A stretch of 64,000 nucleotides of DNA from Escherichia coli (GTDB lineage: Bacteria > Pseudomonadota > Gammaproteobacteria > Enterobacterales > Enterobacteriaceae). Positions 23,272-53,742 of the stretch are shown here, piece after piece (the first letter of the stretch is position 1; the number at the start of each line of letters is the position of its first letter). The stretch is from NCBI RefSeq assembly GCF_041248615.1, contig NZ_CP158426.1. One strand, given 5' to 3'. The translations under genes and the position numbers were made by a program. Under the pieces are notes generated by a model that did no database searches, was not told the origin of the DNA, and was given only the letters and a program-made list of their open reading frames with translations.

Positions 23272-23598
23272 ATGACTAAAAATACTCGTTTTTCCCCCGA
23301 AGTCCGTCAGAGGGCGATTCGTATGGTTCTGGAAAGTCAGGGCGAATATGACTCACAGTGGGCGGCAATTTGTTCCATTGCCCCAAAGATTGGCTGTACA
23401 CCGGAGACTCTGCGTGTCTGGGTGCGCCAGCATGAGCGGGATACCGGAGGCGGTGATGGCGGGCTCACCACCGCTGAACGTCAGCGTCTGAAAGAGCTGG
23501 AACGTGAAAATCGTGAACTGCGCCGCAGTAACGATATCCTTCGCCAGGCTTCCGCTTATTTTGCGAAGGTGGAGTTCGACCGCCTCTGGAAAAAGTGA
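23272..23598 (+). CDS. IS629-like OrfA (HTH transposase subunit)
   Basis: 108 aa [21 protein letters not shown]...; leucine-zipper region; overlaps orfB in the -1 frame. Confidence 0.8.
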
Positions 23599-24012
23599 TG
23601 CCACTGCTGGATAAGCTGCGTAAGCTGTACGGGGTCGGACCGGTATGCAGTGAACTACATATTGCCCCGTCAACGTATTACCACTGTCAGCAACAGCGAC
23701 ATCATCCTGATAAACGCAGTGCCCGTGCGCAGCGCGATGACTGGCTGAAGAAAGAGATACTGCGCGTATACGATGGGAATCATCAGGTATACGGTGTGCG
23801 TAAAGTCTGGCGTCAGTTGTTACGGGAAGGAATCAGGGTAGCCAGATGTACAGTGGCGCGCCTCATGGCGGTTATGGGACTTGCCGGTGTTCTCCGGGGT
23901 AAAAAGGTCCGCACTACCGTCAGCCGGAAAGCCGTTGCCGCAGGCGACCGCGTAAACCGTCAGTTTGTGGCAGAACGTCCTGACCAGTTGTGGGTGGCTG
24001 ATTTTACTTACG
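23595..24012 (+). pseudogene. IS629-like OrfB, interrupted after ...QLWVADFTY by a group II intron
   Basis: Transposase homology ends at 24012; intron consensus GTGTG follows at 24013. Confidence 0.7.
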
Positions 24013-26769
<2,757 letters not shown>

Positions 26770-35632: not shown

Positions 35633-38600
35633 CTAAATCTTTCCACCCACCCCCTTAAATTTTTCAATAAATGCGCTAATTTTTTGAAAAACAGTCTGTT
35701 TTTTCGTTTTATATTGCGGATTTAAAGGACTGAGTCTGGGCAGTGTCTCGTTTAATTCCGTGCCATTTTCGGTGGCGTATTCGCGTTTTAAAGATGTGCG
35801 AATATAGCGTTTCGCCGCCTCTTCATTGAGATTTTCTTCTTTGATCAAGGCTTCTGCTTCACGTTGCTGTTCGCGTTGAGCAAACGTAAAGAATGCGTCA
35901 ATGATGCTGGCTTTGTCCGGTAAATCATCCAGGTTCGTTTGCTGAATAAAATCGACCACCAGGCCCTCTTTAGCACGGTTCCCCAGGCTTGAACGAATTA
36001 AGCGTTTGACCTCTTCGATCATTTCGCTCTTACCTTTGTTTTGTCTGTTGTGCTCGAAAATCAGACCAAGGATATAATCCAGGTTTATTTCCTGAGATTT
36101 CAGCAAATCGACCTCAAAAACTACGTCATCCCAGTCAGTGGTTGATTTCTCTTTTTTCTCAGCTTCTTTCTCACGGCGCTGCCAGTCGCGAATATCGTTA
36201 TAGGCAGAACGATAATCCTGAATCTTGCGATCAGCAGGGAGACGAATTGTTTGCAATTCAGCGAGCTTTTCATCATCCACATAATGTTCTGCTTTGAATT
36301 TTTCTACTGCAACAGGATCGCTAAGATCGATTTGTTGCAGGGCTTTCAGCGTGGCAAATTCATCATAGTTTTGCAGGATGTTCTCGGCACGCAGGTATTC
36401 ACCAAACAGTTTAACGAAGTCTTTCTTCTCTTTTTCACTTTCAATACTGGCAGGGTCAGGGAACCGTTGTTCCAGTTCTGCAACTACTGCCATAAAGCCG
36501 CGCTTAGCTTCACCAGTAGCAGCATCAGTAAAGCCTTCCATATACTCTGCATAACTCTTTTCTAACACTACATTTTTGGTGTTTTTGTCACCAAACAGCG
36601 TTATGGCATCGATGGTTGAGCGTTCCAGATCGCGGAAAGTGACGATATTACCGAAGGTTTTAGTTGCATCATAAATACGGTTGGTGCGGGAAAATGCCTG
36701 CATCAGGCCGTGAAAACGCAAGTTTTTATCGACGAATAGCGTGTTCAATGTTGGAGCATCGAAACCGGTTAAAAACATCCCCACGACAATTAACAGATCG
36801 ATATCCTGATTTTTAACCCGTTGGGCTAAATCACGATAGTAGTTCTGAAAACCCTTACTGTCGGTGCTGAAGTTAGTTTTAAAATAGCTGTTATACTCAC
36901 GAATTGCAGCGTCAAGAAACTCTTTAGCACTGCTGTCCATTGCGCTGGTATCAAAAGTTTCATCGGATATTTCACCAATCGCATTTTGTTCTTCATTAGC
37001 GGCAAAGGAGAAGATTGTCGCAACACGCAGTGGTTTACAGGTAGTAGATTTATTAGCGGCTTCCTCTTGTAACCGTTTAAACGTCGCGTAATAGGCTTTC
37101 GCGGCATCCACGCTGCTTACTGCCAGCATGGCATTAAAACCTTTGGAGCCAGGGAAAGTACGGTGGGTTTTCTGGCGGAAATTATTCAGAATATATTGCG
37201 TGATTTCCTGAATACGCATGGGATGAAGAAACGCCTGCTGATTTTCAGCCGCACTTAGTTTTTTCTCGTCAGTTTCTGTCTCTAAAGACTTAAACTGTGG
37301 TCGCACATCGTTGTAGTCCACCTTGAATTTGAGCACTTTTTCGTCACGAATCGCATCGGTAATTACATACGAATGCAATTCACGACCAAATACGCTGGCG
37401 GTTGTTTCTGAGCCTAAGGCGTTTTCCGGGAAAATAGGGGTGCCGGTAAAACCAAACTGATAATAGCGTTTGAATTTCTTCTTCAGGTTTTTCTGCGCTT
37501 CTCCAAACTGGCTGCGGTGGCATTCATCAAATATAAACACCACTTGCTGATTATATACAGGCAGGTCGCTTTCTGCTTTCATCAGGTTATTGAGTTTCTG
37601 AATAGTAGTGACGATAATTTTGTTATCGTCCTTATCCAGATTTCGTTTAAGGCCTGCGGTATTTTCCGAGCCGTTGACGCTGTCTGGCGAAAAACGCTGA
37701 TATTCCTTCATGGTCTGGTAATCGAGGTCTTTCCTGTCGACCACAAAGAAGACTTTATCAATAAAGTCCAGCTCTGTTGCCAGACGCGCGGCTTTAAAGC
37801 TGGTGAGGGTTTTACCAGAACCGGTAGTGTGCCAGATATACCCACCGCTTTCCGGTTTTGACCAGTTCTTCGCTGTAAAGGAACTCTTAATTTTCCACAG
37901 AATGCGCTCGGTGGCGGCAATCTGGTACGGTCGCATCACCAGTAGCGTCTGACTACTGTCAAAAACGCTGTAGTTCACCAGAACATTCAGCAGAGTATGT
38001 TTCTGGAAAAAGGTAGCGGTAAAGTCTTTGAGGTCTTTAATCAGCGTGTTGTCTGATTTCGCCCAGTTCATGGTGAAGTCAAAACTGTTTTTATCGCGCT
38101 TTGTTGTGTTGGCAAAATAACGGGTATCGGTGCCGTTAGAAATGACAAACAGTTGCAGATACTTAAACAGAGAATTTTCGCTGTTAAAACTCTCTTTGCT
38201 GTAACGGTGTATCTGGTTGAACGCTTCACGAATCGCCACGCCGCGCTTTTTCAGTTCGATTTGCACCAGCGGCAAGCCATTAACCAGGATCGTGACGTCA
38301 TAACGGTTAGCGTGAGAGCCTGCCTGTTCAAACTGCTGGATAATCTGCACTTTATTGCGCATGAGATTCTTTTTATCTATCAAATAGATGTTCTCAAGAC
38401 GCCCGTCGTCAAAAATAAAGTCGCAGATGTAGTCGATATGAATTTTACGGGTTTTATCCAGGATGCCATCGCTCGGATTATCCAGAAACTGCTCCGTGAA
38501 ACGCCGCCACTCGCTGTCATTAAACACCACACCATTGAGGTTCTGAAGCTGTTCCCGAACGTTGGCCAGCATCGCTGACTGTGATTTTACGGGTATAAAT

Positions 38601-38749
38601 TCATAGCCCTGATTCCGCAGGTCCTGAATCAGTTCACGTTCCAGGTCCGATTCGCTCTGGTAGCTGTCGCCTGTTTGCTCAGCTTTGATGTACTTATCAA
38701 GAACGATAAAGTTATTGGATTCAGCAATGGTGTGTGTTTGATGAGTCAT
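35633..38749 (-). CDS. hsdR: Type I restriction enzyme R subunit (EcoR124-like, Type IC)
   Basis: 1038 aa; Walker A TTGSGKT, DECH box ([10 protein letters not shown]), helicase motifs; same length as EcoR124I HsdR (from memory). Confidence 0.9.
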
Positions 38750-38870
38750 AGCGCATCCTTTGTGCCGTCTGGCAAGGGTCGGAAGGGAGTTAATGGTGAC
38801 TTCCGGCGTGTAAAAAATAGTCTATATACAGACCGGATGTTAAGGTGATCCGGTCTGTAATAATGGTCAA

Positions 38871-40064
38871 TTAATTACTGACAGTTTCAGGTTTCGGGAA
38901 ACTGAACAGTAAATCACGGTAGTACTCGTATTGTTTCTGGCGTAACTCGATTTCACGCGGGAGACCTTCGGTGATGGAGTTGGTCAGGGTGTCGAATTTA
39001 TCGAGAATAGATACAATTCGTTTTTGTTCAGCTATGCATGGAATTGGGATTCGGAACTGTCTAAGATTTGTCAGATTGAGCATTCCATAGTTACGCATTT
39101 CAGATTTAAGTGTATTGTATAAATTTGTCAAGAAATAGAATATGAATTTATCAGTAATAATATTTTCTTTAGTGGACTTTATGCTGGCTATATTTTGATT
39201 GGTTGTTGCTTCAAACTCAAGAAATGCAGTTTTAAATATAGTTGCACCAACAAGTGCGATTAAAGTGGTATTCTTAGGAAGAAGTTTTGCAGTGGATTTT
39301 TTTAATCCTAGCTCGCTTATAAAATCTTTCGCAAAATAAACAGATTCATTATTACATGATTCCGATTTTAACCATGGAATTGACCCATTATCCCAGTATT
39401 CTGCTTTAGATTTTGAGGGGGTTCCTCCAGCGCAAATATGAAATAACTCTTCATTTCCCAAAGTTGTCCAATTAACCTCACCCTCTTTAAAACTCAACAA
39501 CTGGTCGCGATAGTAGTTGTACTGTTTTTTACGCATGTTAAGCTCAGCGGTAAGCTCAGCGGTAAGTGCAGTAAATTTATCCAGAATCCGAACGATTTCA
39601 GACTGGATGGCAAGGGACTTTTCCGGGTTGTCCGGACTAGGAATGGGAACTTTAAATCCTTCCAGCATGGGTTTTCTTATCGAAATGGCGGTAGCACCCA
39701 CACTTTTTGTCAAGATGTACTGCTTAAAGCTAGATGACATGAAGTAATACAAAAACTTCGTGTCTACGGCATTAGTTGTGATACGAATTCTATACGCCCT
39801 TTGATGTAGAGCATATTTCCCCTCAACATAGTGAAATATGTCGCCAATTCCACCTTCACCAGGAATGACTATTGCTACCTCATCAAATTCAAAGGTATCT
39901 GACTTCAAGATATTCTTTGAGCGAACATAGAATGGATAAATTCCATTTTCGCTTTCATCCTGACGATTTGAACTTCCAGTACCGATATCTGCCATAGAAC
40001 CCAATGTTACCCACTCAACCTCAACCCCATCCAACAGTTTTTCCAGATAGCTCAGCTCGCTCAT
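38871..40064 (-). CDS. hsdS: Type I restriction-modification specificity subunit (Type IC; two target-recognition domains with a TAEL-repeat central region)
   Basis: 397 aa; conserved N-terminus [18 protein letters not shown] and central ...[33 protein letters not shown]; second conserved repeat ...[16 protein letters not shown]... Confidence 0.85.
39541..39564. repeat. 12-bp tandem repeat x2 (agctcagcggta) inside hsdS, encoding TAEL-TAEL
   Basis: Two perfect adjacent 12-bp units followed by a diverged third unit (agtgcagtaaat). Confidence 0.85.
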
Positions 40065-41617
40065 TTCTGCACCTCGCAGCCTTCAATTTCAGCCACAATC
40101 GCATCAATATCTTTGCGCAACTGGTCGATTTTGCTGACCGTGGTTTTCAGTTCAGCATTCAGCTCATCGATATCGATAATTTCGCGGTTATCTTTCGCTT
40201 CCACATAGCTGCTCACCGACAGGTTATAGTCATTCGCGACAACGGCTTCGAACGCGACAGATTTTGCCAGATGAGCAACATCTTCCTTGCTGGCAAATAC
40301 CTGCATAATCTGTTCGATATGGGCATCGGTCAGGATATTGTTGTTAGTCTCTTTTTTGAACAGTTCGCTGGCGTCAATAAACTGAACTTTGGTATCCGTT
40401 TTATGTTTAGACAGCACCAGAATATTTACGGCAATGGTGGTGCCAAAGAACAGGTTCGGTGCGAGTGAAATCACGGTTTCGACATAGTTATTGTCGACCA
40501 GATACTGACGGATTTTCTGCTCTGCGCCGCCACGGTAAAAAATACCCGGGAAGCAGACAATCGCAGCACGACCTTTGGCCGAAAGATAGTTCAGCGCATG
40601 TAGTACAAACGCAAAGTCAGCTTTGGATTTGGGGGCCAGAACGCCAGCCGGGGCAAAACGTTCATCGTTAATCAGCGTCGGGTCATCGCTGCCAATCCAT
40701 TTCACCGAATACGGTGGGTTAGATACGATGGCGTCAAACGGTTTTTCATCTCTGAAGTGCGGCTCAGTCAGTGTATTACCCAGCTTGATATCAAACTTGT
40801 CGTAGTTGATATTGTGCAAAAACATGTTCATACGCGCCAGGTTATAGGTCGTATGGTTGATTTCCTGACCGAAAAAGCCTTCTTCGATGATATGGTTATC
40901 AAACTGTTTTTTCGCCTGCAACAACAGTGAGCCGGAACCCGCTGCCGGGTCGTAGATTTTGTTAACGCTGGTCTGCCCGTGCATAGCCAGTTGTGCAATC
41001 AGCCTGGAGACGTGCTGCGGTGTAAAGAACTCACCGCCTGACTTACCGGCATTTGCGGCATAGTTAGAAATCAGGAACTCATAGGCATCGCCGAACAGGT
41101 CAATCTGATGTTCGTTAAAGTCGCCAAGCTTTAACCCTTCAACCCCTTTCAGAACCGCAGCCAGGCGGGCATTTTTATCCTTAACGGTGTTACCCAGGCG
41201 GTTACTGGTGGTATCGAAATCAGCAAACAAACCTTTGATGTCTGCTTCTGAAGGGTAGCCGTAAGCAGAACTTTCGATAGCAACGAAGATGCTGTTTAAA
41301 TCTGCATTCAGTCTGTCATTGGTATTTGCTTTCGCAGCTACGTTGCAGAAAAGCTGACTGGGGTAGATGAAGTAGCCTTTGGTTCTGATGGCATCGTCTT
41401 TAATGTCATCAGTAATTACGCTGTCATCCAGTTTCGCATAACAGATACTGTCATCACCGGCTTCAATATAACTGGAAAAATTTTCGCTGATAAAACGGTA
41501 GAAAAGTGCGCCCAGAACGTATTGCTTAAAATCCCATCCGTCAACAGAACCTCTGACATCATTGGCAATTTGCCATATCTGGCGGTGCAGTTCTGCTCGT
41601 TGTTGAATACTTGTCAT
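40061..41617 (-). CDS. hsdM: Type I restriction-modification N6-adenine DNA methyltransferase subunit
   Basis: 518 aa; motif [11 protein letters not shown], motif IV NPPY (SNPPYSVKW); stop overlaps hsdS start. Confidence 0.9.
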
Positions 41618-41880
41618 TTTTAATCCATTTTCCTGGTTTGGACCTGAATCATTGAGGGCAATTCTACAGCAATCTTGTGGTTCAGGCAGCCCCGGAGTAA
41701 GTCGGTGTACATTGTGAGATACCTGGGGTATTCACGACAAGGAGGAGGAACGGAATATTGCCTTTCCTTTGCAGTGCACCAGGTGCATTCTAAATAATTT
41801 CAGACAGATATTATCTCCGTGAATCCCCCGCCACCTTTCCGGTGCGCGGGGTTTTGTCTTTTTTCACCGGGAATACATGT

Positions 41881-42753
41881 ATGAATCCGTCTGATGCCAT
41901 TGAGGCAATTGAAAAACCACTTTCTTCCCTGCCTTACTCACTTTCCCGTCACATCCTGGAACATCTGCGCAAACTCACCAGCCACGAACCCGTGATTGGC
42001 ATTATGGGGAAAAGCGGGGCCGGTAAATCCTCACTCTGTAATGCACTGTTTCAGGGGGAGGTCACCCCGGTCAGTGATGTTCACGCCGGCACCCGGGAAG
42101 CGCAGCGCTTCCGTCTGAGTGGCCATGGTCACAGCATGGTTATCACTGACCTGCCCGGGGTGGGCGAGAGCCGGGACAGGGATGCAGAGTATGAAGCCCT
42201 GTACCGTGACATTCTGCCTGAACTTGACCTGGTACTGTGGCTGATTAAAGCCGATGACCGTGCCCTGTCTGTGGATGAGTATTTCTGGCGACACATCCTG
42301 CACCGGGGACATCAGCGGGTACTGTTTGTGGTGACGCAGGCCGATAAAACGGAGCCCTGCCATGAATGGGATATGGCCGGTATTCAGCCTTCTCCCGCAC
42401 AGGCACAGAACATTCGCGAAAAAACGGAGGCGGTATTCCGTCTGTTCCGGCCCGTACATCCGGTTGTGGCCGTATCGGCCCGCACCGGCTGGGAACTGGA
42501 TACGCTGGTCAGTGCGCTCATGACAGCACTTCCCGACCATGCCGCCAGTCCCCTGATGACCCGCCTGCAGGACGAGCTGTGCACGGAATCTGTCCGGGGG
42601 CAGGCCCGTGAACAGTTTACCGGTGCGGTGGACCGGATATTTGACACGGCGGAGAGCGTCTGTGTTGCCTCTGTGGCTCGTACGGTTCTGCGTGCCGTCC
42701 GTGACACGGTGGTCTCTGTTGCCCGCGCTGTATGGAACTGGATTTTCTTCTGA
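41881..42753 (+). CDS. YeeP/YkfA/YfjP-like GTPase (ORF open from 41842)
   Basis: G1 motif GIMGKSGAGKSS, G3 DLPG; conserved position immediately upstream of antigen 43 as in CP4-type prophages. Confidence 0.7.
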   Translation: MNPSDAIEAIEKPLSSLPYSLSRHILEHLRKLTSHEPVIGIMGKSGAGKSSLCNALFQGEVTPVSDVHAGTREAQRFRLSGHGHSMVITDLPGVGESRDRDAEYEALYRDILPELDLVLWLIKADDRALSVDEYFWRHILHRGHQRVLFVVTQADKTEPCHEWDMAGIQPSPAQAQNIREKTEAVFRLFRPVHPVVAVSARTGWELDTLVSALMTALPDHAASPLMTRLQDELCTESVRGQAREQFTGAVDRIFDTAESVCVASVARTVLRAVRDTVVSVARAVWNWIFF

Positions 42754-42871
42754 ACACTCTGCCAGGGGAAATGCCTGATTACATTGCGTTAACCAACTGA
42801 AAACATGACACAAACACCTCATACCCACCTCTTTCTCTTGCGTGACTGCCTTGCTGTTAATAGAATAAAAC

Positions 42872-42907
42872 GATCGATAAAACAGGTATCGATCGTTGTA
42901 ATCGATC
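42872..42907. promoter_or_regulatory. Three GATC sites in the agn43 regulatory region (Dam/OxyR phase-variation switch)
   Basis: GATC at 42872, 42891 and 42904 within aacGATCgataaaacaggtatcGATCgttgtaatcGATCgtt, about 220 bp upstream of the antigen 43 start. Confidence 0.6.
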
Positions 42908-43124
42908 GTTTATGGTGGTTAATGGTCTGCGAAAAGGCAGCTGAATCTCTTCATCATGCAGAACGGAATTGCACACAACGGACTGATACTTCTCTGGCGG
43001 ATGAGAGAGGGGAAGCATTTATGTCCGGGAAAAACCACTTTATCTGACCATGCTGTTTTGTACCTGCCGGTATCCACATTTGTGGGTACCGGCTTTTTTA
43101 TTCACCCTCTGTAAGGAAAAGCTG

Positions 43125-45971
43125 ATGAAACGACATCTGAACACCAGCTACAGGCTGGTATGGAATCACATTACGGGCACCCTGGTGGTGGCTTCCGAAC
43201 TGGCCCGCTCACGGGGAAAACGCGCCGGTGTGGCGGTTGCGCTGTCTCTTGCTGCTGTCACGCCAGTCCCGGCACTGGCTGCTGACACGGTTGTAGAGGC
43301 GGGAGAAACCGTGAACGGCGGAACACTGACAAATCATGACAACCAGATTGTCTTCGGTACGACCAACGGAATGACCATCAGTACCGGGCTGGAGTATGGG
43401 ACGGATAACGAGGCCAATACCGGCGGACAATGGATACAAAATGGCGGTATCGCCAACAACACTACTGTCACCGGTGGTGGTCTTCAGAGAGTGAATGCCG
43501 GAGGAAGCGTTTCAGACACGGTTATCAGTGCCGGAGGCGGACAGAGCCTTCAGGGGCAGGCAGTGAACACCACTCTGAACGGCGGTGAGCAGTGGGTACA
43601 TGAAGGCGGGATTGCAACGGGTACCGTCATTAATGAGAAGGGCTGGCAGGCCGTCAAATCCGGCGCAATGGCAACCGACACGGTTGTGAATACCGGCGCG
43701 GAAGGGGGACCGGATGCAGAAAATGGTGATACCGGGCAGTTTGTTCGCGGAAATGCCGTACGTACCACTATCAATGAAAATGGTCGTCAGATTGTGGCTG
43801 CTGAAGGAACAGCAAATACCACTGTGGTTTATGCCGGCGGCGACCAGACTGTACATGGTCACGCACTGGATACTACGCTGAATGGGGGGTACCAGTATGT
43901 GCACAACGGCGGTACGGCGTCTGACACTGTTGTAAACAGTGACGGCTGGCAGATTATCAAGGAAGGTGGTCTGGCGGATTTCACCACCGTTAACCAGAAA
44001 GGCAAACTGCAGGTGAACGCCGGTGGTACCGCCACACATGTCACCCTGAAACAGGGTGGAGCACTGGTCACCAGTACTGCGGCAACGGTTCTTGGCAGCA
44101 ACCGTCTGGGCAATTTCACGGTGGAAAACGGTAAGGCTGACGGCGTTGTTCTGGAGTCCGGCGGTCGCCTGGATGTACTGGAAGGCCATTCAGCGCAGAA
44201 AACACGGGTGGATGACGGCGGAACCCTGGCAGTGTCTGCCGGTGGTAAGGCAACAGGTGTCACCATGACATCCGGTGGTGCCCTGATTGCAGACAGTGGT
44301 GCCACTGTTGAGGGGACCAATGCCAGCGGTAAGTTCAGTATTGATGGCATATCCGGTCAGGCCAGCGGCCTGCTGCTGGAAAATGGCGGCAGCTTTACGG
44401 TTAATGCCGGGGGACAGGCCAGCAACACCACTGTCGGACATCGTGGAACACTGATGCTGGCTGCCGGGGGAAGTCTGAGTGGCAGAACACAGCTCAGTAA
44501 AGGCGCCAGCATGGTACTGAATGGTGATGTGGTCAGTACCGGCGATATTGTTAACGCAGGGGAGATTTACTTTGACAATCAGACAACACCGGATGCCGCG
44601 CTGAGCCGTGCTGTTGCAAAAGGCGACTCCCCGGTAACGTTCCATAAACTGACCACCAGTAACCTCACCGGTCAGGGGGGCACCATCAATATGCGTGTTC
44701 GCCTTGATGGCAGCAATGCCTCTGACCAGCTGGTGATTAATGGTGGCCAGGCAACCGGCAAAACCTGGCTTGCGTTCACAAATGTCGGAAACAGTAACCT
44801 CGGGGTGGCAACCTCCGGACAGGGTATCCGGGTTGTGGATGCACAGAATGGTGCCACCACAGAAGAAGGTGCGTTTGCCCTGAGTCGCCCGCTTCAGGCC
44901 GGTGCCTTTAACTACACCCTGAACCGTGACAGCGATGAAGACTGGTACCTGCGCAGTGAAAATGCTTATCGTGCTGAAGTCCCCCTGTATGCCTCCATGC
45001 TGACACAGGCAATGGACTATGACCGGATTCTGGCAGGCTCCCGCAGCCATCAGACCGGTGTAAACGGTGAAAATAACAGCGTCCGTCTCAGCATTCAGGG
45101 CGGTCATCTCGGTCACGATAACAACGGCGGTATTGCCCGTGGGGCCACGCCGGAAAGCAGCGGCAGCTATGGCTTCGTCCGTCTGGAGAGTGACCTGCTG
45201 AGAACAGAGGTTGCCGGTATGTCTGTGACCGCAGGGGTATATGGTGCTGCTGGCCATTCTTCCGTTGATGTTAAGGATGATGACGGCTCCCGCGCCGGCA
45301 CGGTCCGGGATGATGCCGGCAGCCTGGGCGGATATCTGAATCTGGTACACACGTCCTCCGGCCTGTGGGCTGACATTGTGGCACAGGGAACCCGCCACAG
45401 CATGAAAGCGTCATCGGACAATAACGACTTCCGCGCCCGGGGCTGGGGCTGGCTGGGCTCACTGGAAACCGGTCTGCCCTTCAGTATCACTGACAACCTG
45501 ATGCTGGAACCACAACTGCAGTATACCTGGCAGGGACTCTCCCTGGATGACGGCCAGGATAACGCCGGTTATGTGAAGTTCGGGCATGGCAGTGCACAAC
45601 ATGTGCGTGCCGGTTTCCGTCTGGGCAGCCACAACGATATGAGCTTTGGTGAAGGCACCTCATCCCGTGACACCCTGCGCGACAGTGCAAAACACAGTGT
45701 GAGTGAACTGCCGGTAAACTGGTGGGTACAGCCTTCTGTTATCCGCACCTTCAGCTCCCGGGGTGACATGAGCATGGGTACAGCTGAAGCCGGCAGTAAC
45801 ATGACGTTCTCACCGTCACAGAATGGCACGTCACTGGACCTGCAGGCCGGACTGGAAGCCCGTGTCCGGGAAAATATCACTCTGGGCGTTCAGGCCGGTT
45901 ATGCCCACAGTGTCAGCGGCAACAGCTCTGAAGGCTATAACGGTCAGGCCACGCTGAATGTGACTTTCTGA
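43125..45971 (+). CDS. flu: Antigen 43 self-associating autotransporter adhesin
   Basis: 948-aa product from ATG 43125; extended signal peptide MKRHLNTSYRLVWNHITGTLVVASELARS..., repetitive beta-helix passenger, C-terminal beta-barrel ending ...TLNVTF. Confidence 0.85.
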   Translation: MKRHLNTSYRLVWNHITGTLVVASELARSRGKRAGVAVALSLAAVTPVPALAADTVVEAGETVNGGTLTNHDNQIVFGTTNGMTISTGLEYGTDNEANTGGQWIQNGGIANNTTVTGGGLQRVNAGGSVSDTVISAGGGQSLQGQAVNTTLNGGEQWVHEGGIATGTVINEKGWQAVKSGAMATDTVVNTGAEGGPDAENGDTGQFVRGNAVRTTINENGRQIVAAEGTANTTVVYAGGDQTVHGHALDTTLNGGYQYVHNGGTASDTVVNSDGWQIIKEGGLADFTTVNQKGKLQVNAGGTATHVTLKQGGALVTSTAATVLGSNRLGNFTVENGKADGVVLESGGRLDVLEGHSAQKTRVDDGGTLAVSAGGKATGVTMTSGGALIADSGATVEGTNASGKFSIDGISGQASGLLLENGGSFTVNAGGQASNTTVGHRGTLMLAAGGSLSGRTQLSKGASMVLNGDVVSTGDIVNAGEIYFDNQTTPDAALSRAVAKGDSPVTFHKLTTSNLTGQGGTINMRVRLDGSNASDQLVINGGQATGKTWLAFTNVGNSNLGVATSGQGIRVVDAQNGATTEEGAFALSRPLQAGAFNYTLNRDSDEDWYLRSENAYRAEVPLYASMLTQAMDYDRILAGSRSHQTGVNGENNSVRLSIQGGHLGHDNNGGIARGATPESSGSYGFVRLESDLLRTEVAGMSVTAGVYGAAGHSSVDVKDDDGSRAGTVRDDAGSLGGYLNLVHTSSGLWADIVAQGTRHSMKASSDNNDFRARGWGWLGSLETGLPFSITDNLMLEPQLQYTWQGLSLDDGQDNAGYVKFGHGSAQHVRAGFRLGSHNDMSFGEGTSSRDTLRDSAKHSVSELPVNWWVQPSVIRTFSSRGDMSMGTAEAGSNMTFSPSQNGTSLDLQAGLEARVRENITLGVQAGYAHSVSGNSSEGYNGQATLNVTF

Positions 45972-45994
45972 TAATCAGGTCACTCCCCTTCAGG

Positions 45995-46021
45995 CCCCGG
46001 TCATAATGACCGGGGCTTTTT
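45995..46021 (+). terminator. Rho-independent terminator after flu
   Basis: ccccggtcat a atgaccgggg followed by cttttt. Confidence 0.55.
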
Positions 46022-46297
46022 ACTTTCAGGGAGCAACAGATATGCCGGGTTGTACATCACGTTTATTGCCGAAGGCTCTTTTGCTGCCAAATGGCATCTG
46101 AATCGTTCACAATTTGGCCGGTTATTGCCCGATCCCGATGGGGTTATTGGGTGATCTCCTTCCATAAAAATACGCAGCTCGCCAGTGAAGGGCTTCTCAG
46201 ACAATAAACGTCATTCATTTCGTCCATCAGGCCGCGTCTTCTCCGGGAGACGCGGCTTTTTCATTTACACCGCTAACTCATTCATAAGGAATAAATC

Positions 46298-47116
46298 ATG
46301 CGATTAGCCAGTCGTTTTGGTTATGCGAACCAGATACGCCGTGACCGCCCCTTAACCCGTGAAGAACTGATGCAGGTCGTCCCCAGCGTATTCGGGGAAG
46401 AGAAACACACATCCAGAAGCGAGAACTATACCTGGATCCCCACCATCACCGTGCTGGAAAGCCTGCAGCGGGAAGGCTTCCAGCCATTCTTCGCCTGCCA
46501 GACCCGCGTGCGCGACCCGGGCCGCCGGGGATACACCAAACACATGCTGCGTCTGCGCCGTGACGGGGAGATAAACGGACAACATGTCCCTGAAATCATC
46601 CTGCTGAACTCCCATGACGGTACCTCCAGCTACCAGATGCTGCCGGGTTACTTCAGGTTCGTCTGCCAGAACGGATGCGTCTGTGGTCAGTCTCTGGGGG
46701 AAGTGCGTGTTCCACACCGGGGAGACGTAGTGGAGAAAGTTATCGAAGGGGCTTACGAGGTGGTGGGGGTTTTTGACCGGATTGAGGAGAAGCGTGATGC
46801 CATGCAGTCGCTGGTCCTGCCGCCACCGGCACGCCAGGCGCTGGCACAGGCGGCACTGACTTACCGTTATGGTGACGAACATCAGCCCGTCACCACTGCT
46901 GACATTCTGACACCGCGACGCCGGGAGGATTACGGTAAGGACCTGTGGAGTGCTTATCAGACCATCCAGGAGAATATGCTGAAAGGCGGGATTTCCGGTC
47001 GCAGTGCCAGAGGAAAACGTATCCATACCCGTGCCATTCACAGCATCGACACGGACATTAAGCTCAATCGCGCATTGTGGGTGATGGCAGAAACACTGCT
47101 GAAGAGTATGCGCTGA
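46298..47116 (+). CDS. DUF932-type protein (YfjQ/YafZ-like)
   Basis: 272 aa; family and position typical of CP4-type prophage ends (assignment from memory). Confidence 0.55.
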   Translation: MRLASRFGYANQIRRDRPLTREELMQVVPSVFGEEKHTSRSENYTWIPTITVLESLQREGFQPFFACQTRVRDPGRRGYTKHMLRLRRDGEINGQHVPEIILLNSHDGTSSYQMLPGYFRFVCQNGCVCGQSLGEVRVPHRGDVVEKVIEGAYEVVGVFDRIEEKRDAMQSLVLPPPARQALAQAALTYRYGDEHQPVTTADILTPRRREDYGKDLWSAYQTIQENMLKGGISGRSARGKRIHTRAIHSIDTDIKLNRALWVMAETLLKSMR

Positions 47117-47206
47117 TGCCTTTTCCCTGAAAGCGCAGTTCTGACTCATGTCCGTCCCTGCCCCGCGACTTCTTCCCTTCATTTACTTTTTATAAGGAAT
47201 AATCTC

Positions 47207-47692
47207 ATGACAACCGTTTTGCATAATTCCACCACATCTTCTGTTTCCGTAACCGCTGTATCAGAGAATAACCCGACTCAACTGGTTGCCACCCTCGTCC
47301 CTGATGAACAGCGCATCAGCTTCTGGCCGCAGCATTTTGGCCTCATTCCACAGTGGGTGACCCTGGAGCCCCGTGTCTTCGGCTGGATGGACCGTCTGTG
47401 CGAAGACTACTGCGGTGGTATCTGGAATCTGTACACCCTGAACAACGGCGGGGCATTTATGGCCCCCGAACCGGATGACGATGATGACGAAACATGGGTA
47501 CTGTTCAGTGCCATGAACGGTAACCGCGCTGAAATGAGCCCGGAAGCTGCCGGTATTGCCGCCTGTCTGATGACGTACAGCCATCATGCCTGTCGTACGG
47601 AGTGTTATGCCATGACGGTCCATTATTACCGTCTGCGGGATTACGCCCTGCAGCATCCGGAATGCAGCGCCATTATGCGTATCATCGACTGA
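47207..47692 (+). CDS. Putative antirestriction protein (YfjX/YafX-like)
   Basis: 161 aa; acidic stretch EPDDDDDE; conserved position upstream of radC-like gene. Confidence 0.5.
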   Translation: MTTVLHNSTTSSVSVTAVSENNPTQLVATLVPDEQRISFWPQHFGLIPQWVTLEPRVFGWMDRLCEDYCGGIWNLYTLNNGGAFMAPEPDDDDDETWVLFSAMNGNRAEMSPEAAGIAACLMTYSHHACRTECYAMTVHYYRLRDYALQHPECSAIMRIID

Positions 47693-48184
47693 ATGGAGAG
47701 AAGCATAATGCAACAGCTTTCCTTTCTGCCCGGAGAGATGACGCCTGGCGAGCGCAGCCTCATTCAGCGGGCCCTGAAAACCCTGGACCGCCATCTTCAT
47801 GAACCCGGCGTGGCCTTCACCTCCACGCATGCGGCACGGGAGTGGCTGATTCTGAACATGGCGGGACTGGAGCGGGAAGAGTTCCGGGTGCTGTATCTGA
47901 ACAACCAGAATCAGCTGATTGCCGATGAAACCCTCTTCACCGGCACCATCAACCGCACGGAAGTCCATCCCCGTGAAGTGATTAAACGCGCCCTGTATCA
48001 CAATGCCGCTGCTGTGGTGCTGGCACACAATCACCCGTCCGGTGAAGTCACACCCAGCAAGGCAGACCGCCTTATCACGGAACGTCTGGTACAGGCACTG
48101 GCCCTGGTGGATATCCGGGTACCGGACCATCTGATAGTTGGTGGCAACCAGGTTTTCTCCTTTGCGGAACACGGTCTGCTTTAA
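47693..48184 (+). CDS. RadC-like JAB/MPN-domain protein (YeeS/YkfG/YfjY-like)
   Basis: JAB motif HNHPSGEVTPSKAD. Confidence 0.75.
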   Translation: MERSIMQQLSFLPGEMTPGERSLIQRALKTLDRHLHEPGVAFTSTHAAREWLILNMAGLEREEFRVLYLNNQNQLIADETLFTGTINRTEVHPREVIKRALYHNAAAVVLAHNHPSGEVTPSKADRLITERLVQALALVDIRVPDHLIVGGNQVFSFAEHGLL

Positions 48185-48252
48185 CCCGTCACCGTTACAA
48201 CCACATCACACCTGTTTTCACTTTTATCTTCTGTCTTCAGAGGTATCCCACT

Positions 48253-48474
48253 ATGAAAATCATCACCCGTGGCGAAGCCATGCGTATTCATCAACAACAT
48301 CCTGCATCCCGTCTTTTCCCGTTCTGTACCGGCAAATACCGCTGGCACGGCAGCACTGAAGCGTATACCGGTCGTGAAGTGCAGGATATTCCCGGTGTGC
48401 TGGCCGTGTTTGCTGAACGCCGTAAGGACAGTTTTGGCCCATATGTCCGGTTGATGAGCGTCACCCTGAACTGA
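48253..48474 (+). CDS. DUF987-type small protein (YeeT/YkfH-like)
   Basis: 73 aa; conserved position between radC-like and antitoxin genes. Confidence 0.5.
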   Translation: MKIITRGEAMRIHQQHPASRLFPFCTGKYRWHGSTEAYTGREVQDIPGVLAVFAERRKDSFGPYVRLMSVTLN

Positions 48475-48553
48475 GTCTGGAAGGGCATTCAGATGAGCAG
48501 AATTATCGCCACCACCGGACCATTCTTAACCGATTTTCTGTGAGGACTTTATC

Positions 48554-48922
48554 GTGTCAGACACACTGCCCGGGACAACGCATCCCGACAACAACAACGA
48601 CCGCCCCTGGTGGGGGCTGCCCTGCACCGTGACGCCCTGTTTCGGGGCACGTCTGGTGCAGGAGGGTAACCGGTTGCATTACCTTACAGACCGCGCCGGT
48701 ATCAGAGGGCGGTTCAGCGATGCGGATGCGAACCATCTGGACCAGGCCTTTCCGCTGCTGATGAAACAACTGGAACTCATGCTCACCAGCAGTGAACTGA
48801 ATCCCCACCGTCAGAATACCGTCACGCTGTATGTTAAAGGGCTGACCTGCCATGCGGACACCCTCGGCAGCTGTGGTTACGTTTATCTGGCTGTTTATCC
48901 GACGCCCGAAATGAAAAATTAA
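48554..48922 (+). CDS. cbeA: CbeA/YeeU-family type IV antitoxin
   Basis: 122 aa; gene pair arrangement with downstream CbtA-like toxin. Confidence 0.7.
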
Positions 48923-49011
48923 CTCTCCAGAATAGCCTTCTGCTACGGCCTGGTGCTTTCACCACGCCACTTTTCCATTTTTCATCTCTGCATATCAGGA
49001 AAATCTTCAGT

Positions 49012-49395
49012 ATGAAAACATTACCTGTATTACCCGGGCAGGCGGCCAGTTCACGCCCGTCTCCGGTTGAAATCTGGCAGACACTGCTCACCCGACTGCT
49101 GGACCAGCACTACGGCCTTACGCTGAATGACACACCGTTCGCCGATGAACGTGTGATTGAGCAGCATATTGAAGCTGGCATTTCACTGTGTGATGCGGTG
49201 AACTTTCTCGTTGAAAAATACGCACTGGTACGTACCGACCAGCCGGGATTCAGCGCCTGTACCCGCTCTCAGTTAATAAACAGTATTGATATTCTCCGGG
49301 CTCGCCGGGCAACCGGCCTGATGACCCGCGACAATTACAGAACGGTAAATAACATTACCCTGGGTAAGCATCAGGAGTCGAAACGATGCAACTGA
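49012..49395 (+). CDS. cbtA: CbtA/YeeV-family toxin (cytoskeleton-binding toxin)
   Basis: 127 aa [43 protein letters not shown]... Confidence 0.7.
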
Positions 49396-49874
49396 CCCTG
49401 ACACTGGAAGCCGACAGCGTTAACGTACAGGCACTGAATATGGGGCGAATTGTCGTTGACATTGATGGTGTTAATCTCGCTGAACTGATTAACATGATCT
49501 GCGATAACGGCTACTCCCTTCGTGTTGTTGATGAATCTGACCGGACCTCAGCAGACTGCACGCCACCATTTGCTGCCCTTACCGGCATACGCTGCAGTAC
49601 CGCACATATCACGGAAACGGACAACACCTGGCTGTACTCGCTGTCGCATCAGACGAATGACACCGGCGAATCAGAATGGATTCATTTTACAGGCAGAGGG
49701 TATCTGTTACGTACCGATGCTTTGTCGTATCCGGTGCTACACCTTAAACGTCTGGGCCTGTCAAAAACCTTCCGCCGTCTGGTTGTCACTCTCATCCGGC
49801 GTTATGGCGTCAGTCTTATTCATCTGGATGCCAGCGCCGGGTGTCTGCCGGATTTACCCACTTTCGACTGGTAA
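49386..49874 (+). CDS. YeeW-like hypothetical protein, overlapping the toxin gene 3' end
   Basis: 162-aa ORF starting 10 bp before the cbtA stop. Confidence 0.4.
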
Positions 49875-49885
49875 CCAGAAACAAC

Positions 49886-50083
49886 ATGAAATCATTAACC
49901 ACGGAAACAGCGCTGGATATTCTGATTGCGTGGCTGCAGGACAATATCGACTGTGAATCCGGAATTATCTTTGACAACGATGAGGATAAAACGGATTCGA
50001 CAGCCCTGTTGTCCTGTATTGAACAGGCCAGGGAGGATATCCGTACCCTGCGCCAACTGCAGCTTCAGCCCCCGAACCGGTGA
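49886..50083 (+). CDS. Small hypothetical protein (DUF957-like); ORF open from 49841
   Basis: ATG at 49886 gives MKSLTTETALDILIAWLQDNID... Confidence 0.4.
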   Translation: MKSLTTETALDILIAWLQDNIDCESGIIFDNDEDKTDSTALLSCIEQAREDIRTLRQLQLQPPNR

Positions 50084-50179
50084 GTTTCACTCATCATCTC
50101 ACTCACCAGACTTCATTCCACTGACGCCAGCCTGAACAGGGCTGGCGTTTTCATTTATCTGCAAAAAGGAATATCGATT

Positions 50180-51025
50180 ATGTCTGATATCACAGCCTCC
50201 CGTCCGGAAGTAGTCAACGGGCATACGGACGTTATCTGCTCAACCAGTATCCGCCACATTCTGGCTGTACGAAAAAGTACACTGCTGCAAATCAACACAC
50301 TTATCCGGCAACTGGCTGAAATCTCAGCAATGACAGAAAGTATTGGCGGTAAAACCGCACTGGACTGGGCGATGAAACAGGATTTTCGCTGTGGCTGCTG
50401 GCTCATGGAGAAACCTGAAACGGCAATGAAAGCCATCACACACAATCTCGATCGTGAAATCTGGCGTGACTTGATGCAACGTTCCGGGATGCTTTCCTTA
50501 ATGGATGCACAGGCCCGTGAGACATGGTACCGGTCACTGGAGTACGATAATTTTCCGGAAATCAGCGAAGCGAACATCCTGAGCACATTTGAACAACTGC
50601 ACCAGAATAAGGATGAGGTGTTTGAGCGAGGGGTGATCAACGTCTTCAGAGGGCTGAACTGGAATTACAAAACCAATTGCCCCTGTAAATTTGGCAGTAA
50701 AATTATCGTCAACAATCTGGTGAGATGGGACCGGTGGGGATTTCATCTTATCACCGGACAACAGGCTGACCGACTCGCCGATCTGGAAAGAATGTTGCAC
50801 CTGTTCAGCGGTAAACCAATCCCCGACAATCGGGAAAACATCACTATTCGTCTGGATGAGCACATTCAGTCTGTTCAGGGTAAAGAGAGCTATGAAGATG
50901 AGATGTTCAGCATCAGATACTTTAAGAAGGGCTCCGCGCATATCACATTCAGAAAACCAGAACTGGTTGATCGGCTAAATGACATCATTGCAAAGCGTTA
51001 TCCGGGACAATTATCAGCCATCTGA
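50180..51025 (+). CDS. Hypothetical 281-aa protein at the tRNA-proximal end of the island
   Basis: ORF only; last gene before the reconstituted tRNA. Confidence 0.5.
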   Translation: MSDITASRPEVVNGHTDVICSTSIRHILAVRKSTLLQINTLIRQLAEISAMTESIGGKTALDWAMKQDFRCGCWLMEKPETAMKAITHNLDREIWRDLMQRSGMLSLMDAQARETWYRSLEYDNFPEISEANILSTFEQLHQNKDEVFERGVINVFRGLNWNYKTNCPCKFGSKIIVNNLVRWDRWGFHLITGQQADRLADLERMLHLFSGKPIPDNRENITIRLDEHIQSVQGKESYEDEMFSIRYFKKGSAHITFRKPELVDRLNDIIAKRYPGQLSAI

Positions 51026-51042
51026 GTCAGATGGAAAAAAGC

Positions 51043-51066
51043 TTACCTGACCCATTACCTGACCCA
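51043..51066. repeat. 24-bp direct repeat TTACCTGACCCATTACCTGACCCA (right copy), 57 bp from the tRNA 3' end
   Basis: Identical to 2880..2903. Confidence 0.8.
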
Positions 51067-51070
51067 ATTC

Positions 51071-51113
51071 AAAGGAAAAAGAAAAAGGGTTAGCTGGTTT
51101 ATTAGCTAACCCT
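51071..51113 (-). terminator. Island-borne rho-independent terminator directly downstream of the reconstituted tRNA
   Basis: Minus strand: stem agctaaccct / agggttagct followed by tttttcttttt. Confidence 0.55.
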
Positions 51114-51122
51114 TTGTTGTGT

Positions 51123-51198
51123 ATGGTGGCCCCTGTTGGGTTTGAACCAACGACCAAGCGATTATGAGTCGCCTGCTCTAACCACTGAGCTAAGGGGC
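51123..51198 (-). tRNA. ileX: tRNA-Ile2 (anticodon CAU, lysidine-modified), attL side of the island
   Basis: 76-nt cloverleaf GGCCCCTTAGCTCAGTGGTTAGAGCAGGCGACTCATAATCGCTTGGTCGTTGGTTCAAACCCAACAGGGGCCACCA with encoded CCA; K-12 position between mug and yqjH. Confidence 0.9.
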
Positions 51199-51323
51199 CA
51201 TGGTAGCGGATTATAAAGTAACTCCGTGTCGCAATCCAGCCATTACCGCGCGCCTGCTGTTTTTATAAACAATGTATTTTCAATCCGTTATACTTTTCCT
51301 GGTGATGTTAGAAAGGAGTAAAT

Positions 51324-51900: not shown

Positions 51901-53742
51901 TTAATCGTCCAGGAAGCTACGCAGCACTTCAGAACGGCTCGGGTGACGCAGTTTGCGCAGCGCCTTCGCTTCGATCTGACGGATACGTTCGCGGGTAACG
52001 TCGAACTGTTTACCCACTTCTTCCAGCGTGTGGTCGGTGTTCATATCGATACCGAAGCGCATACGCAGAACTTTCGCTTCACGCGCGGTCAGGCCAGCCA
52101 GCACGTCGTGCGTTGCCGCACGCAGGCTTTCGGTGGTCGCAGAATCCAGCGGCAGCTCGAGGGTGGTATCCTCGATGAAATCCCCCAGATGCGAATCTTC
52201 ATCATCACCGATCGGCGTTTCCATGGAGATTGGCTCTTTGGCGATCTTCAGCACTTTGCGGATCTTGTCTTCCGGCATCAGCATACGTTCAGCCAGTTCT
52301 TCCGGCGTCGGTTCACGGCCCATCTCTTGCAGCATCTGGCGAGAAATACGGTTGAGTTTGTTGATAGTCTCAATCATATGCACCGGAATACGGATGGTGC
52401 GCGCCTGATCCGCGATAGAACGGGTGATCGCCTGACGGATCCACCAGGTTGCGTAGGTGGAGAACTTGTAACCACGGCGGTATTCGAATTTATCAACCGC
52501 TTTCATCAGGCCGATGTTACCTTCCTGAATCAGGTCAAGGAACTGCAAGCCACGGTTGGTGTATTTCTTGGCGATAGAAATAACCAGACGTAAGTTCGCT
52601 TCAACCATCTCTTTCTTCGCACGGCGGGCTTTTGCTTCACCGATGGACATACGACGGTTGATATCTTTAACCTGCTCGATGGTCAGGCCGGTTTCTTCTT
52701 CAATCTGCTGCAGTTTCTGCAGGGCGCGATGCACTTCTTCAGAGACATCGTGCAGTTTTTCCGACCACGGCTTGTTCATTGCAATTGCCGCGTTGAACCA
52801 GGTATCGCTGGTTTCGTTGCCGGTAAACAGGGTAATGAAGTTTTTCTTCGGCATTTTGCACTGCTCAACGCAGAGCTTCATGATCAGACGTTCTTGCGTA
52901 CGAACGCGGTCCATCATGACGCGCATGCTGTTGACCAGGTAGTCAAACTGCTTCGGCACCAGGCGGAACTGTTTGAATACTTCAGACAGTTTCAGGATCT
53001 CTTCCTGAGCGGCAGCGTGACTGCGACCTTTCGCTTTGATGGTGTCACGCGTTACAACGTACTGAGCGCGCAGTTCCGCAAATTTTTCACGAGCCAGTTC
53101 CGGGTCGATGCTGTTGTCATCATCGGCGCTGTCGTCATCGCCATCTTCTTCGTCTTCATCTTCGTCATCGTCCAGATCTTCCTGGGAAAGCTCAGAACCG
53201 ACGTGAGTGGCGGTAGGTGCCAGATCTTCTTCTGCGTTCGGGTCAACAAAGCCGGTGATCAGATCGGACAGACGCGCTTCTTCTGCTTCAACACGATCGT
53301 ACTGTTCCAGCAGATAGGTGATCGCTTCCGGATATTCAGCAACGGAGCATTGAACCTGGTTGATCCCGTCTTCAATACGCTTAGCGATGTCAATTTCGCC
53401 TTCGCGGGTCAACAGTTCAACGGTGCCCATTTCACGCATGTACATGCGTACCGGGTCAGTCGTGCGCCCGATTTCAGATTCCACGCTGGAAAGCACCTGC
53501 GCGGCGGCTTCGGCAGCATCTTCGTCCGCGGTGTTTTCAGCCAGCATCAGATCATCGGCATCCGGTGCTTCTTCCATCACCTGAATGCCCATGTCGTTGA
53601 TCATTTGGATGATGTCTTCGATCTGATCTGAATCGACGATATCTTCCGGCAGATGGTCATTGACCTCGGCATAGGTCAGATAGCCTTGCTCCTTACCACG
53701 GGTGACAAGAAGTTTCAGCTGTGACTGCGGGTTTTGCTCCAT
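51901..53742 (-). CDS. rpoD: RNA polymerase sigma-70 factor
   Basis: 613 aa with acidic region and regions 1-4. Confidence 0.95.

Follow-up and report, generated by a model that had tools for sequence, protein, structure and literature searches.

An intact Ag43/Cah adhesin allele in Escherichia coli that very probably carries the canonical Dam/OxyR phase-variation switch

The agn43 locus and its surroundings

The window, by which we mean the whole 64-kb stretch of E. coli DNA analyzed here, is identical (100%) to E. coli NRZ14408. Its agn43 locus is part of an island of ~48 kb at tRNA-Ile (the tRNA-Ile/ileX site in NRZ14408). At the level of genes, the locus is composed as follows:

41881..42753, plus strand: gene for a YeeP-like GTPase directly upstream of agn43 (RefSeq annotation of the identical genome; Pfam MMR_HSR1)
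43125..45971, plus strand: gene for an Ag43/Cah family autotransporter adhesin of 948 aa, intact, with an ESPR signal peptide, AIDA repeats, an autochaperone and a beta-barrel
45992..46026, plus strand: terminator-like hairpin with a T-rich tail just past the agn43 stop codon

The sequence-only reading had the adhesin gene end at 45971, and the ORF indeed has its stop there. The biological start is the ATG at 43125; an in-frame upstream ATG at 43050 was rejected as the gene start because it is neither conserved nor annotated. The product matches the Ag43/Cah equivalog NCBIfam NF033177 over residues 1-948 of 948 (1981 bits; cutoff 1200), and its Pfam architecture (ESPR 6-50, AIDA in six stretches, AC_1 499-599 and Autotransporter 690-924) is that of a type Va autotransporter. 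The passenger has 18 mismatches over 562 residues relative to the EDL933 structure (PDB 7KO9; ~97% identity), and it is solely from this near identity to the characterized EDL933 Ag43 that we infer self-association and autoaggregation.

The hairpin follows the stop codon and a DUF932 gene comes next; agn43 here looks monocistronic, and no yeeR-irmA was found downstream of agn43 in the window. On the other side of the adhesin gene, the 3' end of the YeeP-like gene is, by alignment, common to the yeeP pseudogene of K-12. The dam and oxyR genes are both outside the 64-kb window; E. coli normally carries both.

Promoter, GATC triad and putative OxyR operator

The region between the YeeP-like gene and the leader contains a predicted sigma-70 promoter, three GATC sites and two putative OxyR half-sites:

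42838..42843, plus strand: putative -35 hexamer TTGCGT; all 120 alleles have its TTG, and K-12 has TTGTCC here
42860..42874, no strand assigned: putative OxyR half-site 1, ATAGAATAAAACGAT, 8/10 relative to the consensus ATAGnTnnnAnCTAT, overlapping the -10 box and GATC-I
42861..42866, plus strand: -10 hexamer TAGAAT, present unchanged in 118 of 120 alleles as well as in K-12 and CFT073
42872..42875, no strand assigned: GATC-I, with the G as the inferred transcription start (+1); the homologous G is the start of the K-12 isrC annotation
42891..42894, no strand assigned: GATC-II
42892..42906, no strand assigned: putative OxyR half-site 2, ATCGTTGTAATCGAT, 8/10, holding GATC-II and GATC-III, which are 13 nt apart
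42904..42907, no strand assigned: GATC-III

The putative -35 hexamer is separated from the -10 box by a spacer of 17 nt and scores under the generic promoter-scan threshold. We positioned the transcription start from the homologous 5' end of K-12 isrC, which is annotated as opening with the G of GATC-I and closing with the T-run of the terminator; transcription presumably begins at this G, and the isrC annotation agrees. The -10 box and the inferred start are both overlapped by the putative operator.

GATC sites at 42872, 42891 and 42904, in the leader upstream of the antigen 43 gene, were the core of the sequence-only reading. All three are present, and they lie 253 to 221 nt 5' of the ATG in the transcribed leader. 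Their spacing of 19/13 nt is exactly that of the flu triad of K-12 MG1655. A MAFFT alignment of the window with K-12 that opened a 13-nt gap within the triad was discarded because an ungapped comparison puts both triads in register.

GATC triads within ~36 bp are not rare per se, with seven in the window versus ~1.1 expected under a Poisson model, and one of them, in rpoD (52407/52426/52438; 52407-52441), has a spacing of 19/12. The agn43 cluster could, therefore, be a chance outcome of CGATCG-type palindromes with no regulatory role. However, the exact arrangement GATC-N15-GATC-N9-GATC occurs once in the 64-kb window versus 0.02 times expected (100 dinucleotide-preserving shuffles), the three GATCs and their spacing are retained in 111 of 120 independent alleles and in both of two operator types that otherwise diverge, and the triad sits at the transcription start beneath the putative OxyR half-sites. 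Because of the conservation data, we regard a chance origin as effectively refuted and give it almost no credence. The rpoD triad was rejected as a second switch and is attributed to chance because it lacks sequence similarity to the agn43 switch.

The two putative half-sites are 32 bp apart (17-nt gap), and they form the only pair in 64 kb in which both half-sites score at least 8/10 with this gap, versus 0.07 expected. In this extended register, 20 of 20 OxyR consensus positions have the same bases as in K-12. By contrast, in the classical 37-bp OxyR register, where the gap is 7 nt, 10/20 positions agree with the consensus in the window and 14/20 in K-12, and this register fails to explain the conservation. 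Because the classical register gives only 10/20 in the window, the putative operator assignment rests on the extended register, which we adopted instead. The OxyR footprint at agn43 is one that we take to extend from -16 to +42. Among 120 independent alleles, the blocks -13 to +8 (covering half-site 1), +16 to +26 and +30 to +37 are near-invariant, and the window has the consensus base at every position of these blocks.

The operator and leader of the window are of type A, which is the commoner type in E. coli, while the K-12 regulatory region is of the minority type. The CTAT element at the center of the K-12 operator is missing from type A. Moreover, the A at +29 is rare: the 60-mer of the window is matched at ≥99% by 6 of 5426 genomes. 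Substitutions at +28/+29 that appeared private to the window (unique relative to 118 metagenomic alleles) were rejected as such since the genome collection has a common TTGTCAT allele one base off, carried by SMS-3-5 and APEC O2-211, and this leaves only the A at +29 as rare. These features raise the alternative that the switch elements are present while the allele is biased or locked, because the lack of CTAT or the A at +29 alters OxyR affinity or DNA bending. The lower score in the classical register than in K-12 and the occurrence of the exact 60-mer in just 4-6 of the 5426 genomes fit such an allele, as does the precedent of the Salmonella opvAB switch, which is locked by single-base changes in OxyR half-sites (PMC4856963). 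However, the half-site consensus has an unspecified base (n) at +27 to +29, where natural alleles vary, with T, C or A at +29, and every specified half-site position is the same as in K-12. In addition, type A keeps the triad, and because it is the majority type with a conserved triad, we argue that its operator works. We, therefore, consider a biased or locked allele very unlikely. In a literature search, no direct switching experiment on a type-A (common, non-K-12) operator was found, because CFT073 agn43b and JJ1887, a relative of EC958, resemble K-12; a search on Cah-type regulatory regions or agn43 methylomes returned nothing specific.

The surroundings of the triad are poor in GATC. Between 38847 and 46131 the triad contains the only GATCs, and no other GATC-free gap in the window is as long as the two that flank it (4025 and 3227 bp). 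In 11.9 kb of flanking DNA, 9 GATCs are observed versus 49 expected, making GATC the most depleted tetranucleotide, and 90 of 95 complete agn43 coding sequences have no GATC at all. GATC is scarce in acquired, silenced DNA. We speculate, as a doubtful extension of the model, that OxyR might see the type-A operator only via the pair spaced by 32 bp, perhaps with other switching kinetics for lack of the CTAT element, and that the conserved GATC desert, in which the triad is an isolated island, might be a selected insulation. If so, the desert would shield the competition between Dam, OxyR and SeqA from neighboring sites, as opposed to merely reflecting the GATC scarcity of acquired DNA.

The leader RNA and its terminator

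Between the promoter and the adhesin gene are three further elements:

42872..43099, plus strand: leader RNA as far as the terminator, corresponding to the small RNA IsrC of K-12 (Rfam IS102), from the Rfam match and the extent of K-12 isrC
43066..43099, plus strand: intrinsic terminator with a 12-bp stem, a 4-nt loop and a T6 run, ending 26 nt before the ATG
43113..43117, plus strand: Shine-Dalgarno sequence AAGGA, read directly and kept in K-12

Counted from the G of GATC-I, the leader has 253 nt ahead of the start codon. Rfam RF00124 (IS102/IsrC) matches 42870-43106 with 71.8 bits (gathering score 46; model 1-206/206), with the GATC hairpin at the 5' end and the terminator at the 3' end both included, while the weakly matching middle is longer than that of the model. 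The terminator is near-identical in K-12, and in CFT073 agn43b a few of its bases differ and its T-run is shorter.

Two ORFs that overlap the leader were rejected. The first, at 42956-43114 (52 codons), crosses the leader terminator and has its stop inside the Shine-Dalgarno sequence, and was a candidate translation-coupled antiterminator. We rejected it as a coding feature because it is without a Shine-Dalgarno sequence of its own and absent from the 255-nt leader subtype, because its few peptide changes across alleles are nearly all amino-acid replacements, and because the same frame in K-12 merely fuses to the agn43 ORF. The second, an ORF of 80 aa at 42805-43047, begins 5' of the transcription start.

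The leader terminator could also be what mainly sets expression, by IsrC-like premature termination, leaving the methylation switch barely visible in Ag43 level or aggregation. This terminator is strong, conserved and close to the ATG, the terminated leader is annotated as a stable small RNA in K-12, and the K-12 leader terminator is reportedly functional, as Wallecha and coworkers are said to have found in 2014. However, the terminator and methylation layers are compatible rather than exclusive, and in EC958 the loss of oxyR alone gives 121-fold more agn43 transcript (PMC4807369). Dominance of the terminator thus appears unlikely to us.

Proposed regulation and comparison with known systems

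All checkable sequence elements of the published agn43 switch, the OxyR half-sites as putative ones, are present and in register with those of K-12, in line with the Dam/OxyR phase-variation arrangement originally proposed for this region. Judged from the sequence, the region is very probably an intact Ag43/Cah adhesin allele with a canonical Dam/OxyR switch, and we predict ON/OFF behavior, OxyR binding, differential methylation and leader termination in this strain.

Competition between Dam and OxyR is described for agn43-type switches (PMC3764049, PMC4872104, PMC13337833, PMC2909390). In the model that we suggest for this allele, the sigma-70 promoter (-35 at 42838, -10 at 42861) would fire from the G of GATC-I (42872) or close to it, and a reduced OxyR tetramer would be expected to occupy two dimer sites, 42860-42874 and 42892-42906, that are 32 bp apart. 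In the OFF state, OxyR on the DNA would block the promoter and shield the three GATCs from Dam. In the ON state, Dam would methylate the GATCs first after replication, with the result that OxyR would be excluded and the gene transcribed. Either state would then be heritable. As a second layer, the leader terminator would stop part of the transcription, giving rise to an IsrC-like RNA of ~228 nt; we expect this because the leader ends in an intrinsic terminator, 26 nt short of the ATG. The protein of 948 aa belongs to the EDL933/Cah class and is predicted to be a self-associating adhesin.

An agn43 locus with a methylation switch is already known, and nothing in the arrangement is new. The strain carries an intact, probably phase-variable Cah-class Ag43 on a tRNA-Ile island, which bears on predictions of how heterogeneous aggregation and biofilm formation will be and adds little beyond annotation. 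Almost all mechanistic work has been done on the K-12 regulatory region, although the allele survey puts its type in the minority. Conservation from type to type extends to the -10 box with GATC-I, the half-site with GATC-II and GATC-III, and the leader terminator, and these define the minimal switch.

The locus shares with K-12 flu/agn43 the -10 box TAGAAT, the TTG of the -35, the GATC triad spaced 19/13 from +1 and the bases at all 20 consensus positions of the putative OxyR half-sites (extended register), as well as a yeeP-type gene upstream and a near-identical terminator, Shine-Dalgarno sequence and first codons. By contrast, the interval between GATC-I and GATC-II is AAAACAGG in the window and ATCTATTT in K-12, and the interval between GATC-II and GATC-III and the leader from about +38 to +185 are unrelated in the two. 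The K-12 leader has 222 nt versus 253 nt in the window, and the K-12 protein has 1039 aa versus 948 aa, with 74% identity and a shorter passenger in the window. Cah/Ag43 of EDL933 (EHEC O157:H7; 7KO9) is of the same 948-aa class with few amino-acid substitutions, and O157 cah loci match a 501-nt regulatory query from the window at 92-97%; however, the genomic island of EDL933 cah differs from the tRNA-Ile/ileX site of the window.

Among UPEC alleles, CFT073 agn43b agrees with the window in its promoter, its GATC triad and the layout of the putative half-sites, and both CFT073 agn43b and the EC958 allele are de-repressed by oxyR mutation, in EC958 to the 121-fold level given above (PMC4807369). 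Unlike the window, CFT073 agn43b, the one UPEC allele compared, has a K-12-like operator/leader subtype with a 224-nt leader, and JJ1887, the ST131 relative of EC958, matches the K-12 leader at ~87%. Also, agn43 of UPEC belongs to an operon with yeeR and irmA (agn43-yeeR-irmA), whereas in the window agn43 is followed by a terminator and then the DUF932 gene. In Salmonella gtr and opvAB, each OxyR dimer half-site holds a GATC pair 13 nt apart and the half-sites are spaced by 32 bp, the geometry of reduced OxyR (PMC2909390 for gtr); putative half-site 2 of the window has such a GATC pair, and the two putative half-sites have this spacing. In both, as in the proposed switch, methylated sites exclude OxyR, and bound OxyR keeps Dam away. 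However, the Salmonella switches use alternative OxyR sites that exclude one another, and OxyR has an activating role there as well, whereas the window has a single putative OxyR site for repression, which covers the promoter and the start of transcription.

The GATC triad and the promoter-operator region

The three GATC sites that the sequence-only reading had placed at 42872 (GATC-I), 42891 (GATC-II) and 42904 (GATC-III) are exactly there. Their spacing equals that of the triad of flu, the agn43 gene of K-12 MG1655. Close GATC triads as such are not rare (seven in the window); the exact arrangement GATC-N15-GATC-N9-GATC occurs once, with 0.02 occurrences expected from shuffles. Another triad, at 52407-52441 in the rpoD coding region with 19/12 spacing, does not resemble the agn43 operator in sequence and was dismissed as chance. 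A MAFFT alignment misaligned the window and K-12 triads, while an ungapped comparison puts them in register.

Elements of the proposed switch and leader
42838-42843: -35 element containing TTG, conserved with K-12
42861-42866: -10 element TAGAAT, conserved with K-12
42860-42874: putative OxyR half-site 1, ATAGAATAAAACGAT, 8/10; overlaps the -10 element and GATC-I
42892-42906: putative OxyR half-site 2, ATCGTTGTAATCGAT, 8/10; contains GATC-II and GATC-III
42956-43114: upstream ORF, about 52 codons (1884-2042 in the K-12 locus L002)
43066-43093: strong leader terminator plus T6 run, in the IS102 match; ends 26 nt before the ATG

The agn43 -10/-35 pair was not picked up in a generic promoter scan because the -35 element is weak. 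In MG1655, the annotated small RNA isrC begins with the G of the first GATC and ends with the last T of the leader terminator; by homology, +1 of the window's agn43 would be 42872. In 2002, Wallecha et al. reportedly placed the transcription start on the G of the upstream GATC and found an OxyR(C199S) footprint from -16 to +42.

Half-sites were scored by matches to the 10 specified positions of each half of the published OxyR dimer consensus ATAGnTnnnAnCTAT (as quoted in PMC2909390). With the 7-nt gap of the classical register, the window scores 10/20 versus 14/20 in K-12. A pair of 8/10 half-sites with a 17-nt gap is found only once in the window, with 0.07 expected, and this putative pair is the same as in K-12 at 20/20 specified positions. 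Inside half-site 2, GATC-II and GATC-III are 13 nt apart.

Leader RNA and agn43 product

The Rfam family IS102 (IsrC) matches 42870-43106 (71.8 bits), with a 5' hairpin built from the GATC-II and GATC-III palindromes. The hairpin at 43066-43093 with its T6 run is the known agn43 leader terminator, which Wallecha et al. reportedly found in 2014 to be functional in K-12. In both leader types found among natural alleles, this hairpin is crossed by a frame of about 52 codons that opens with an ATG (..LYLPVSTFVGTGFFIHP..). The K-12 version shares the reading frame of the agn43 start; the window's version stops within the Shine-Dalgarno sequence. We rejected this ORF as a translated antiterminator because it has no ribosome-binding site, is missing in one (255-nt) leader subtype and has changes that are almost all replacements.

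The agn43 ORF ends at 45971, as had been claimed, and its real start is the ATG at 43125, giving a product of 948 aa. This product matches NCBIfam NF033177 (Ag43/Cah equivalog) over its full length with 1981 bits (cutoff 1200), and has an ESPR signal peptide, AIDA repeats, an AC_1 autochaperone and an autotransporter barrel. Its passenger differs from that of EHEC EDL933 Ag43 (solved, PDB 7KO9) at 18/562 positions; compared with K-12 Flu (1039 aa), the protein is 74% identical and has a shorter passenger. Given the terminator-like hairpin at 45992-46018, 3' of the stop codon, agn43 here looks monocistronic, and yeeR-irmA is absent downstream of it in the window. By contrast, UPEC has an agn43-yeeR-irmA operon (PMC4807369).

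Genome setting and GATC depletion

The 501 nt spanning the switch (42700-43200), used as a query, match E. coli NRZ14408 (NZ_LT599825.1) at 100% identity. This match places the whole window at 768001-832000 of that record, whose annotation supplied the gene order. The order is hsdR, hsdS, hsdM (type I restriction-modification), a YeeP-like GTPase, the Ag43/Cah adhesin, DUF932, an antirestriction protein, a RadC/JAB protein, DUF987, the CbeA/CbtA toxin-antitoxin pair, DUF5983, DUF957, DUF4942, tRNA-Ile, mug and rpoD. Apart from the toxin-antitoxin pair, the genes from DUF932 to DUF4942 are the usual CP4-44-like accessory set.

Features of the island
about 2707-2753: partial tRNA copy, 47 nt of the 3' half; far island end
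2950-4266: integrase, same side as the partial tRNA copy
23272-26762: IS3-family transposase gene split by a group II intron
23553-23669: ALIL frameshift pseudoknot of the IS3-family transposase
about 24685-26193: ltrA reverse transcriptase/maturase, within the group II intron region
26196-26282: Rfam Intron_gpII match
35633-41617, minus strand: complete hsdR-hsdS-hsdM system, nearly GATC-free, directly upstream of the GTPase-agn43 module
48555-49396: YeeU/CbeA-CbtA type IV toxin-antitoxin pair, downstream of agn43
51127-51199, minus strand: complete tRNA-Ile, adjoining mug and rpoD; one island boundary

The tRNA-Ile and its 47-nt partial copy mark an island of about 48 kb. The integrase is unusual in adjoining the partial copy and not the intact tRNA.

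The triad comprises the sole GATCs inside 38847-46131 (window scan), and the GATC-free gaps flanking it measure 4025 and 3227 bp, more than any other gap in the window. This desert covers 38848-42871 and 42908-46130, and more broadly 38800-51100.

GATC counts, observed versus expected
agn43 coding sequence, window: 0 versus 6.6
K-12 flu coding sequence: 0 versus 8.2
CFT073 agn43b coding sequence: 2 versus 10.6
hsdS-hsdM-GTPase segment: 1 versus 15.8
downstream module, DUF932 to DUF4942: 8 versus 26.3
all window flanks together (11.9 kb): 9 versus 49 (z = -5.7)

In every region around the switch, no tetranucleotide is more depleted than GATC, but the adjacent core genome is not depleted in it; 90/95 complete agn43 coding sequences have none. 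That the desert insulates the switch is possible but speculative. The depletion spans the whole module, and Dam sites are reported to be scarce in E. coli domains that are silenced and occupied by protein (PMC11741368); the most likely cause is therefore the overall composition of acquired or silenced DNA.

Natural alleles and comparison with known switches

Scanning metagenomes for the conserved terminator motif yielded 120 loci; once K-12, the window and its source record were added to these, 120 regulatory regions were usable. These fall into two operator/leader types.

Types of agn43 regulatory region
Type A (the window's): about 103/120; CGATCGATAAAACAGGTATCGATCG after GATC-I; leader 252-253 nt
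Type B (K-12-like): about 17/120; ...GATATCTATTTTATCGATCG after GATC-I; leader 220-223 nt

Type A was detected in 3425/5426 genomes and type B in 1813/5426, counts that rest on different queries (the 501-nt window-type query and the 221-nt K-12 leader, each at >=80% coverage). Despite the divergence between types, the blocks -13..+8, +16..+26 and +30..+37 are near-invariant across the 120 alleles and serve as a phylogenetic footprint of promoter and operator; the window has the consensus base at every position of all three. Its sole unusual base is the A at +29, an unspecified position of the OxyR consensus where T is usual and C common. The exact 60-mer operator (>=99% match) is present in only 6/5426 genomes, while a common allele differs by one base.

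The full triad is kept in 111/120 alleles. In the other nine (L008, L016, L018, L049, L059, L087, L100, L118, L121), one GATC is lost by point mutation, most frequently GATC-II and with G to A as the usual change. Such alleles could be natural variants whose switch is biased or locked.

CFT073 agn43b, the single UPEC allele compared, is K-12-like, and the ST131 strain JJ1887, an EC958 relative, shows a match of about 87% to the K-12 leader; thus, the direct OxyR evidence on UPEC agn43 (PMC4807369) concerns type B. We found no direct OxyR evidence for type A in the accessible literature.

In the mechanism described in the literature, OxyR on unmethylated GATCs represses transcription and blocks Dam, Dam methylation blocks OxyR, and their competition after replication gives rise to ON and OFF states that are inherited. 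The window carries the full set of cis elements for such a switch, its OxyR half-sites being putative, and we infer that its agn43 is switched ON and OFF. The sequence-only reading holds in both observation and interpretation. In Salmonella gtr, a 13-nt-spaced GATC pair lies within one OxyR half-site and the half-sites are 32 bp apart, a distance termed consistent with reduced OxyR (PMC2909390); the putative operator in the window likewise has a 13-nt-spaced GATC pair inside half-site 2 and half-sites 32 bp apart. The agn43 system in the window is a textbook one that is already known, here in an allelic form that is common.
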